The position numbers and the translations under genes were made by a program. The notes beneath the pieces were generated by a model. That model did no database searches. It worked only from the letters and a program-made list of their open reading frames with translations, and was not told the origin of the DNA. From the NCBI GenBank assembly GCA_963770565.1, contig CAVYQE010000001.1, positions 640,001 to 704,000 on the forward strand: 64,000 nt of DNA, in the 5' to 3' direction. The stretch comes from an uncultured Actinomycetota bacterium. GTDB taxonomy: Bacteria > Actinomycetota > Actinomycetes > JAFAQI01. The stretch's first letter is position 1. Every line of letters starts with the position of its first letter. Shown in pieces: positions 50,241 through 51,447 of the stretch.

Positions 50241-50536
50241 GCACGATTCCTGACCCGCGCGACGTCCTGCTCGGACCGGTCATCTCCGAGAAGAGCTACG
50301 GCCTGCTCGACGAGGGCAAGTACACCTTCCTCGTGCGCCCCGACGCCAACAAGACCCAGATCCGGATCGCCGTTGAGCAGGTCTTCAACGTCGGCGTGGT
50401 CTCGGTCAACACCTTGAACCGCCCGGGCAAGCGCAAGCGCACCCGCAACGGCTACGGCGTGCGCAACGGCAGCAAGCGCGCCGTCGTGTCCTTGCGACCC
50501 GGCGACCGCATCGACTTGTTCGGAGGTCCGGTCTAA
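50237..50536 (+). CDS. rplW: 50S ribosomal protein L23
   Basis: [21 protein letters not shown]. Confidence 0.98.
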
Positions 50537-50611
50537 GTGCCTCACGAAACCGCTCGCTTCGCTCACGCTTCCGCGGGGACCCCGAAAACCCAGATTGCTG
50601 AGGCCTTCTAA
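50537..50611 (+). other. 24-codon mini-ORF through a family C element, bridging rplW and rplB
   Basis: GTG directly after rplW TAA, GGAGG upstream; [27 protein letters not shown] overlaps rplB ATG (TAATG). Confidence 0.6.
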
Positions 50612-51447
50612 TGGGCATTCGCAAGTACAAGCCGACTACGCCGGGACGGCGTGGCGCCAGCGTGGCGGACTTCGTCGAGGTCACCCGTTCGACGCCGGAG
50701 AAGTCGCTGGTCCGCCCGCTGCACGGCAAAGGCGGCCGCAACGTCCACGGCCGAGTCACGGTCCGCCACCAAGGTGGTGGTCACAAGCGCTCGTACCGCG
50801 TGATCGACTTCCGGCGCCACGACAAGGACGGCGTACCGGCCAAGGTCGCGCACATCGAGTACGACCCGAACCGCACCGCCCGGATCGCGTTGCTGCACTA
50901 CGCCGACGGCGAGAAGCGCTACATCATCGCGCCGGCCCGGCTCAACCAGGGCGACACGGTCGAGGCCGGTCCGTCCGCGGACATCAAGCCGGGCAACAAC
51001 CTGCCGCTGCGCAACATCCCGGTCGGCACGGTGGTGCACGCCATCGAGCTGCGGCCGGGTGGCGGGGCGAAGATCGCTCGCTCGGCCGGCGCCAGCGTCC
51101 AGCTGGTAGCCAAGGACGGCGGGATGGCGCAGCTGCGGATGCCCTCGGGGGAGATCCGCAACGTCGACGCCCGCTGCCGCGCCACGATCGGTGAGGTCGG
51201 CAACGCCGAGCAGTCCAACATCAACTGGGGCAAGGCCGGCCGGATGCGCTGGAAGGGCAAGCGCCCGACCGTACGCGGCGTTGCCATGAACCCGATCGAC
51301 CACCCGCATGGCGGTGGCGAAGGCAAGAGCTCAGGCGGCCGGCACCCGGTCAGCCCCTGGGGTCAGCCGGAAGGCCGTACTCGCCAGGCCCACAAGGACA
51401 GCGATCGCCTCATTGTCCGCCGCCGCAAGGCGACGAAGAGGCGCTAG
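50611..51447 (+). CDS. rplB: 50S ribosomal protein L2
   Basis: [26 protein letters not shown]. Confidence 0.99.

Follow-up and report, generated by a model that had tools for sequence, protein, structure and literature searches.

The window analysed here is a stretch of 64,000 nucleotides (nt) from the genome of an uncultured Actinomycetota bacterium, and between its ribosomal protein genes rplW and rplB lies a spacer crossed by an open reading frame (ORF) of 24 codons, here called the mini-ORF, which starts directly behind the stop codon of rplW and ends in a stop codon overlapping the start of rplB. Comparison with relatives indicates that the spacer arose recently, when a small hairpin repeat of a dispersed kind was inserted. 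An open frame of 24 codons is unremarkable by itself in DNA of 68% GC; what exceeds chance is the stop/start geometry, which recurs across the family of hairpin repeats. These observations together suggest, with a probability of about three in four, that the repeat-borne mini-ORF passes ribosomes from one gene to the next and so keeps translational coupling.

The features of the junction are listed in Table 1. The GTG start (50537-50539) abuts the TAA of rplW with 0 nt between stop and start, and the TAA of the mini-ORF (50609-50611) shares its last A with the rplB ATG (50611-50613), giving a TAATG with a 1-nt overlap. Both ends have the geometry of termination-reinitiation (abutment or 1-nt overlap), as far as can be told from the sequence alone. 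An earlier sequence-only reading had reported the rplW TAA followed by GTG, with GGAGG 10 nt upstream, and a 24-codon frame that crosses a repeat and closes in TAATG on rplB. Both were found as described, coordinates included, and the core of the repeat matches other copies: in a repeat search of the window, 50540-50584 was matched to 48253-48303 (51 nt, 90%, inverted) and to 33653-33691. Alignment of the copies showed that the 3' tail of the rplW-rplB insert is common to the tuf-rpsJ and rpsN-rpsH copies. The rplW orthologue in locus L082 matches Pfam Ribosomal_L23. In public sequencing runs, much of the stretch was found only in DNA metagenomes, and the RNA runs contained 0.07-0.08 of the sampled words; no claim is drawn from this.

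Of 26 relatives searched by BLAST with window positions 50237-51000, 19 have the junction, 10 of these being of the same family; one relative in the junction search, G032, was left out of the comparison. In all 10 same-family relatives with the junction, the rplW and rplB matches overlap or abut, and the empty junctions read GTCTAATGGG, GTCTAAATGGG, GTCTGATGGG and similar. The closest relative (G003), which is 96-98% identical to the window, is without the insert at this place, and more distant families have rplW-rplB spacers of 20-40 nt with unrelated sequence. The 70-nt insert is bounded by two copies of TCTAA. The GGAGG motif is encoded in Gly-Gly codons at the end of rplW and most of the ten family relatives have it too. 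G003 has it 10 nt 5' of the rplB ATG itself, and the mini-ORF GTG therefore occupies the former place of the rplB start and takes over its Shine-Dalgarno motif.

A profile of the window's copies was searched with nhmmer against the 4.43-Mb genome. Seven hairpin copies were significant (E <= 1.6e-8), the next match having E = 0.31, and six of the seven lie within the translation and transcription cluster. A confinement of the element to ribosomal operons was considered and dropped, the copies of relatives being found in about 28 kinds of gene pairs. All four junctions of the genome with a copy in "+" orientation are bridged, three by a mini-ORF and rplR-rpsE by read-through of the upstream gene. 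At rpsN-rpsH the mini-ORF has 39 codons and runs from a GTG overlapping the rpsN TGA (GTGA) to a TGA overlapping the rpsH ATG (ATGA), and the copy on contig C8 has a mini-ORF of 22 codons that opens and closes in GTGA. At rplR-rpsE the rplR frame (56851-57369) is stop-free through both tandem copies and closes in TAATG on the rpsE ATG. Here rplR, the gene of L18, has no stop after ...GLEF, and the two repeat copies add 47 residues; in G003 (locus L023) a single copy is found at this junction and ...GLEF is followed by TAG. Either the repeat has given an essential ribosomal protein a C-terminal tail, or the stop was lost very recently.

Table 1. Features of the rplW-rplB junction and copies of the hairpin repeat in the genome (window positions unless a contig is named)
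Feature	Position	Strand	Basis
rplW (ribosomal protein L23), TAA stop 50534-50536	50237..50536	+	ORF list; name from translation
GGAGG, Shine-Dalgarno-like motif in last rplW codons, 10 nt 5' of GTG	50522..50526	+	sequence
TCTAA, left target duplicate, holds rplW stop	50532..50536	+	sequence, relatives' junctions
70-nt insert: GTG start, hairpin core, 3' tail	50537..50606	+	BLAST, junction comparison, copy alignment
mini-ORF, 24 codons + TAA	50537..50611	+	ORF list; classifier class mini-ORF relay
rplW-rplB copy: repeat core, C-rich strand sense, imperfect stem around loop GCTCGCTTCGCTCAC	50540..50584	+	nhmmer E = 3.5e-11; covariance model R1 72.8 bits
GAGG in insert tail, 7 nt 5' of rplB ATG; possible weak Shine-Dalgarno motif	50600..50603	+	sequence
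TCTAA, right duplicate, with TAATG stop/start overlap	50607..50613	+	sequence
rplB (ribosomal protein L2)	50611..51447	+	ORF list; name from translation
rpsN-rpsH copy, core 55773-55817	55766..55885	+	nhmmer, sequence
rplR-rpsE tandem pair, 57226-57272 and 57283-57329	57226..57329	+	nhmmer
carboxyltransferase - biotin carboxylase pair copy	contig C8	+	nhmmer; gene names from translations
tuf-rpsJ leader copy, G-rich strand transcribed	48257..48301	- (opposite)	nhmmer
rpoB-rpoC copy, G-rich strand transcribed	33653..33695	- (opposite)	nhmmer

The distribution of the element was followed with a covariance model (R1) built from its copies. R1 found the element in 16 of 24 other genomes of the family, in 18 of the 22 family genomes of at least 85% completeness, in 1 of 2 genomes of the sister family and in 12 of 16 genomes of the order. 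In a first sample of 14 genomes from 14 other families of the class it found none. In an even sample of the class, 19 of 151 genomes gave matches, with 1-33 copies each; the matches were concentrated in few families (two with 5 of 7 genomes), many families had 0 of 7 each, and most families of the class in this sample were without R1 matches. An exact-pattern scan with one genome per species gave at least 120 loci in actinobacterial records, labelled Micromonospora, Phytohabitans, Geodermatophilus, Nocardioides, Microlunatus and Marmoricola, together with many Frankiales, Mycobacteriales and Actinomycetota metagenome-assembled genomes. Tandem copies occur at L060, L091, L204 (four copies) and L246, besides rplR-rpsE with two copies here and one in G003. 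Because the element is patchy, with copy-number bursts, tandems, and empty and filled sites, the evidence points to a mobile element. The flanking duplications are 4 to 11 nt long, those at sites other than rplW-rplB consisting of NTGA plus 0-7 further bases; duplications that vary over this range fit no transposase type known to us. A Y1/RAYT transposase (IS200-like, PF01797) was found in 0 of 5 carrier genomes by a search whose control was positive in 6 of 14 reference genomes.

Two sets of copies were classified by gene context. For the family and sister family, nhmmer placed 99 hits in 92 of 101 sources, which gave 97 distinct copies. The second, independent set holds 132 copies from the exact-pattern scan; these are counted among the matches listed, and every count called "listed" below is to be read with this scope. 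The two sets together (97 + 132) make 229 copies. A frame-based classifier called a relay where a start lies on or beside the upstream stop and a stop lies on or beside the downstream start. In the family set, 44 of the 97 copies are mini-ORF relays, 10 are read-throughs of the upstream gene that close on the next start, 1 is an N-terminal fusion, 14 lie beside a stop and are unbridged, and 28 are of other kinds. The same classes, in the same order, hold 69, 5, 7, 13 and 38 of the 132 listed scan copies, many of the unclassified ones having flanks too short to call. L076 and L101, counted among the ten read-throughs, are probably miscalled promoter-class copies. At least three more relays, at rpsN-rpsH, L069 and L023, were missed by the classifier and seen by eye; at rpsN-rpsH the reason is that rpsN, being short, had not been recognised as a coding frame. 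About 8-10 family copies lengthen the upstream protein, including rplR of the window. By Pfam scans of the flanks, the relays of the family set lie in about 28 different gene pairs, which include ribosomal pairs (S11-S4, S17-L14, L16-L29, L6-L18, L4-L23), respiratory and ATP synthase pairs (nuoF-G, nuoJ-K, nuoM-N, qcrA-B, sdhA-B, atpG-D), and pdxS-T, pyrB-C, ask-asd, lysA-hom, argS-lysA and transporter pairs.

The length of the copies follows a phase rule. Measured between the two NTGA motifs, 5' and 3', and without recourse to gene calls, the spacing equals 2 mod 3 in 34 of 35 copies of the family set and in 83 of 92 listed scan copies. As a control, NTGA pairs at the same spacing anywhere in the genome were in phase in 1245 of 6089 cases (20%). 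The distances form a ladder with steps of 3 nt (53, 56, 59, 62, 65, 68), of which 53-56 nt is usual, and the linker pairs (7,1)/(8,0) and (9,2)/(10,1) keep an equal distance with the core shifted to another frame. Copies of the listed scan set read the element in each of its three frames, in 35, 20 and 14 cases; the constraint is therefore on the phase and not on the peptide. When a deletion of 1 nt was simulated, every bridge was abolished in 40 of 44 relays, and a deletion of 2 nt gave an in-frame fusion with the downstream gene in 39 of 44; natural fusions that extend the downstream protein were found in only 1 + 7 copies (family set and listed scan set, respectively). Between genera, orthologous filled junctions differ by whole codons, with lengths of 20, 22 and 22 codons at S11-S4, 19 and 23 at livG-F, 20 and 18 at pdxS-T, 20 and 19 at nuoF-G, and 19 and 20 at a CoA-transferase pair. 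We infer that this phase is maintained by selection and not solely by the way the element inserts.

The sense strand of the element is open. The C-rich strand is stop-free in all frames in 89 of 97 family cores and in 132 of 132 listed scan cores, and the G-rich strand has a frame with a stop in 63 of 97 and 99 of 132 (listed), respectively. Copies between co-oriented genes have the C-rich strand as sense strand in 64 cases against 4 in the family set and in 84 against 6 in the listed scan set, or 148 against 10 when pooled. Across the family, the 5' offsets are mostly -1 (NTGA) and the 3' offsets are -1. Junctions that are filled in relatives are empty in this genome as ATGA, GTGA, TTGA or TGATG overlaps, and filled sites carry the junction motif on both sides. 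Very short relay frames were also noticed in this genome at junctions filled in relatives. At nuoJ-nuoK (ATGAACAAATGA) such a frame has 3 codons and corresponds to what the two linkers, left and right, of the filled sites would give without the core; at a pair of alcohol dehydrogenase and LarA genes (GTGACACGCACGTGA) it has 4 codons, and at korA-korB 9 codons. These very short frames may be excision footprints.

The proposed mechanism would work as follows. The copies sit almost only on former overlapping stop/start junctions (ATGA, GTGA, TTGA, TGATG, TAATG), the places where ribosomes that end one gene restart on the next. Since the junction motif is duplicated, the upstream stop is kept, a start lies on or beside that stop, and the downstream start still overlaps a stop. 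At rplW-rplB, a ribosome ending rplW would restart at GTG 50537 with the former rplB Shine-Dalgarno motif GGAGG, read 24 codons, terminate at TAA 50609-50611 and restart on the overlapping rplB ATG. A duplicated junction, a stop-free sense strand, an in-phase length and a weak fold would together give this chain of stop, restart, short frame, stop and restart, and it would preserve the coupling that an untranslated gap of such size would break. According to the excerpts of PMC10666635, restarting by terminated ribosomes falls off steeply as the distance grows and has nearly ceased at about 20-38 nt; an overlapping junction that receives an untranslated insert of 53-75 nt should therefore lose its coupling. 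That ribosomes actually use the mini-ORF frame we infer from these features of the copies. The earlier proposal that a spacer ORF keeps coupling and neutralises the insertion gains comparative support from the true insertion, the phase, the stop-free sense strand and the orientation.

Several points weigh against this mechanism. The rplB gene has a GAGG of its own, 7 nt 5' of its ATG, and the long-tailed S11-S4 copies carry AAGGAG-like motifs before the downstream start, so that the downstream gene may start independently. The rplW-rplB copy is also atypical, having TAA-GTG and TAATG rather than NTGA at its ends and a length of 24 codons. The insertion is present in this genome only, and the frame of this particular copy has therefore been little exposed to selection. 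In the family set, 14 of the 59 copies beside a stop, or about a quarter, are unbridged, which means that the relay is not obligatory; the four unbridged rpoA-rplQ copies have their own Shine-Dalgarno motif, and in L030 a stop has been created within a frame that is intact in the orthologue L050. Moreover, related copies are not independent, so that the counts overstate the number of events, and the two dominant sizes (53 and 56) could come partly from the insertion mechanism and not from selection at each site. Nine weak model hits and copies with short flanks were left out of the classification.

The separate start motifs at rplB and in the long-tailed copies, the four rpoA-rplQ copies and the several more that are unbridged would suit another explanation, in which the repeat is selfish or neutral, its open frame is a by-product of GC-rich DNA with few stops, and rplB translation does not depend on that frame. 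We regard this as quite improbable, because translation that was irrelevant would predict none of the phase, the ladder, the orientation and the start retention. The phase is kept in 117 of 127 copies (scan part among the matches listed), compared with 20% in the control, and the linkers compensate each other along the 3-nt ladder. In addition, a start codon is kept on the upstream stop, the sense strand is strongly biased in orientation, and a shift of 1 nt breaks nearly all bridges.

The structure of the element bears on a further alternative. The core has about 45 nt and the usual unit 49-52 nt plus a duplication of 4-6 nt; the rplW-rplB copy has 70 nt plus TCTAA. An imperfect stem of 13-14 bp surrounds a conserved, near-invariant loop of 15 nt (GCTCGCTnCGCTCAC), which is almost unchanged across orders. 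In the 7 copies of this genome the stem is paired in 93.8% of cells, compared with 40-51% when the partners were slid, with 5 compensatory pairs and 3 invariant wobble pairs. In 103 listed scan copies, whose outer pairs are fixed by the scan pattern, 94.7% of cells are paired, compared with 39-57% for slid partners, and 105 compensatory cells were counted against 43 in shuffles. As transcribed, the G-rich strand folds at -29.3 kcal/mol in the tuf-rpsJ copy (z = -4.0) and at -23.0 kcal/mol in the rpoB-rpoC copy (z = -2.6), and the C-rich strand of the rplW-rplB copy forms a weak fold of -8.4 kcal/mol (z = +1.78). Over 228 of the 229 copies, one having been skipped and the scan part being among the matches listed, the median energies of the G-rich and C-rich strands are -24.7 and -14.4 kcal/mol, respectively, and in 224 of 228 the G-rich strand is the more stable. 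The C-rich strand folds weakly because three G-U pairs of the G-rich strand become A-C mismatches.

It could be argued from this structure that the element is mainly an RNA or DNA hairpin, active in mRNA processing or stability, as a protein site or as a signal of the repetitive extragenic palindromic (REP) kind, and that the frame is merely tolerated. The covarying stem, in the copies of this genome and in the 103 listed ones, and the almost invariant loop are in favour of such a role, as are the strong G-rich form transcribed in the tuf-rpsJ leader and at rpoB-rpoC and the copies in a conserved promoter described below. However, the operon junctions transcribe the weakly folding strand, the phase rule is left unexplained, part of the pairing in the 103-copy count is imposed by the scan pattern, and an Rfam 15 scan of window positions 30000-64000 at E <= 1 gave 0 matches. 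As the main role of the element, a hairpin of this kind is very doubtful. The two readings can be true together, as they would be if the element moved by means of its hairpin. Finally, a functional micropeptide encoded by the mini-ORF is hardly credible and was rejected, because all three element frames are in use, the mini-ORFs range from 16 to 39 codons, and the similarity of peptides from same-frame copies (for example MPHE.ARFAH.SAG.P) merely reflects repeated DNA.

The copies placed outside the junction classes comprise promoter copies (about 12), copies in opposite orientation, short-loop variants and copies at contig ends. The promoter copies lie in a conserved divergent promoter between acyl-CoA dehydrogenase genes and genes of a short-chain dehydrogenase/reductase or thiolase. 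They adjoin a TCTGAC(N4-5)GTCAGA palindrome in several genera, some beside luciferase-like genes; palindrome-adjacent loci are L020, L036, L047, L051, L056, L062, L076, L091, L095, L096, L097, L101 and L102. This suggests that the element is now part of a regulated 5' region at these loci. In L024 (rpsJ-rplC of a family relative) the element has the G-rich orientation and lies in frame in the first rplC codons; alternatively, rplC starts at a GTG at the end of the element.

Among known systems, the element was compared with MIRUs, the interspersed repetitive units of mycobacteria, whose description reportedly goes back to Supply et al. 1997. In the sections devoted to them (PMC12548453, section 11; PMC3184786, section 9), MIRUs are given as GC-rich imperfect inverted repeats of 40-100 bp inside polycistrons, which insert at start codons, contain an internal ORF coupled at -4 nt, and have filled sites flanked by tetranucleotide direct repeats. 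The statement of the sequence-only reading that MIRUs carry small ORFs overlapping the neighbouring stop and start codons agrees with these sections. Like MIRUs, the hairpin element is a short repeat between co-transcribed genes in gene orientation (a 70-nt insert here; 148 of 158 pairs, scan part among the matches listed), and the ends of its internal ORF overlap the stop and start of the neighbours (44 of 97, and 69 of 132 listed). Filled and empty sites with direct repeats are seen in both (empty in 10 of 10 relatives and TCTAA duplicated here), as are tandem copies (rplR-rpsE), and the proposed effect is likewise an insertion with little damage to expression. Unlike MIRUs, the element has a single hairpin with a near-invariant 15-nt loop, a strand asymmetry (G-U against A-C) and a unit of about 50 nt; it uses all three frames, a minority of its copies are inverted and lie in leaders, or lie in the region of a promoter, and it is spread outside Mycobacterium over several orders. 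Compared on the features given in these MIRU descriptions, the element is by analogy a family of the MIRU kind, with every functional feature described for them.

The relay also resembles ordinary termination-reinitiation. In the parts of Huber et al. 2019 (PMC6728339) that concern them, pairs of genes whose stop and start codons overlap are largely subunits of complexes. The mini-ORF ends are 4-nt or 1-nt overlaps or abutments, and the pairs joined by the element are largely subunits of complexes too (ribosome, NADH dehydrogenase, bc1, ATP synthase, succinate dehydrogenase). In contrast to simple coupling, two junctions are chained here through a repeat-borne ORF; relays of this kind are not a subject of the excerpts of PMC10666635.

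With REP sequences and REPINs the element shares short, imperfect, dispersed palindromes that are sometimes in tandem. It differs from them in its low copy number (0-33 per genome), in the lack of a Y1 transposase in 5 of 5 carriers and in its place inside operons, where it is apparently translated and not extragenic. An identity with REP elements and their RAYT transposases (REP-associated tyrosine transposases) was rejected, since PF01797 was not found in the 5 carriers, the copy number is low, and most copies lie within operons in an open frame. The palindromic elements of Rickettsia (RPE) are, according to PMC3184786 (section 15), repeats fused in frame to genes. The element is like them in being a palindromic repeat that stays open and joins coding frames, but here the majority of copies make a mini-ORF of their own between two genes and are not inserts within proteins. 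We know of no sequence relation between the hairpin element and RPE.

Other repeats were noticed during the analysis. Another repeat that forms relays, about 86 nt long and unrelated to the hairpin element (MSEYRSEAKVARS...), has 10 copies in this genome, with a frame of 28-29 codons that opens in an ATGA or GTGA overlap and closes in a TGA overlapping ATG or GTG in 10 of 10 copies. The copies lie at C1:514547, C1:616441, C1:1207216, C2:850611, C2:544221 and 544135 (tandem), C2:94559, C2:12379, C11:927220 and C11:919198 (a truncated copy). In size this repeat comes closer to MIRUs than the hairpin element does, and one of its sites is between ask and asd. The window also contains tandem arrays of 96-98 nt (37715-38470 and 18385-18576; families D1, D2 and D4), and short-loop variants of the hairpin in L042, L098, L106, L107 and L109 adjoin units resembling this 96-98-nt repeat. 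An 85-nt palindromic repeat (CCAAGCAATGTCACATTGCCCC..., family D7) has three copies in the window (20897-20981, 24186-24270 and 61590-61674), and ribosomal protein L4 (49308-50240) has a long C-terminal tail rich in Ala, Lys and Pro, made of AKKAA-like repeats (families D6 and D8).

MIRUs have long been the one textbook repeat that enters operons with its own coupled frame, an idea supported until now by a few mycobacterial loci. Full-text literature searches gave, in the passages returned, no description of such an element in other actinobacteria, and the hairpin element appears to be a second, widespread and apparently undescribed family of the MIRU kind. A bolder view, which we consider unlikely, is that the element is not just tolerated as a parasite but may serve, with its own function, as a portable module for coupling. 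If it were so, the loop and stem would be the site of a trans-acting factor, or a fold opened by the ribosomes that read the mini-ORF, and the element would fix or regulate how strongly the downstream gene is translated relative to the upstream one in ribosomal, respiratory and fatty-acid operons. An inverted copy would act as a strong leader hairpin (tuf-rpsJ, rpoB-rpoC), and one beside the TCTGAC..GTCAGA operator would be part of a regulated 5' region.

For the relay itself, the hundreds of natural insertions offer a record whose spacing, frame and orientation may reflect selection. The 3-nt ladder, together with linkers that compensate each other, would then be evidence, on the scale of populations, that ribosomes which restart depend on frames joined without a break. 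This agrees with the reporter results excerpted from PMC10666635, in which an untranslated spacer of about 20-38 nt breaks coupling. For annotation, the mini-ORFs should be called neither genes nor non-coding gaps, and protein ends extended by the element, such as that of L18 in this genome, should be recognised as repeat-borne. The presence of the element in cultured carriers (Nocardioides, Geodermatophilus and Micromonospora) makes the idea of a ribosome relay directly testable.

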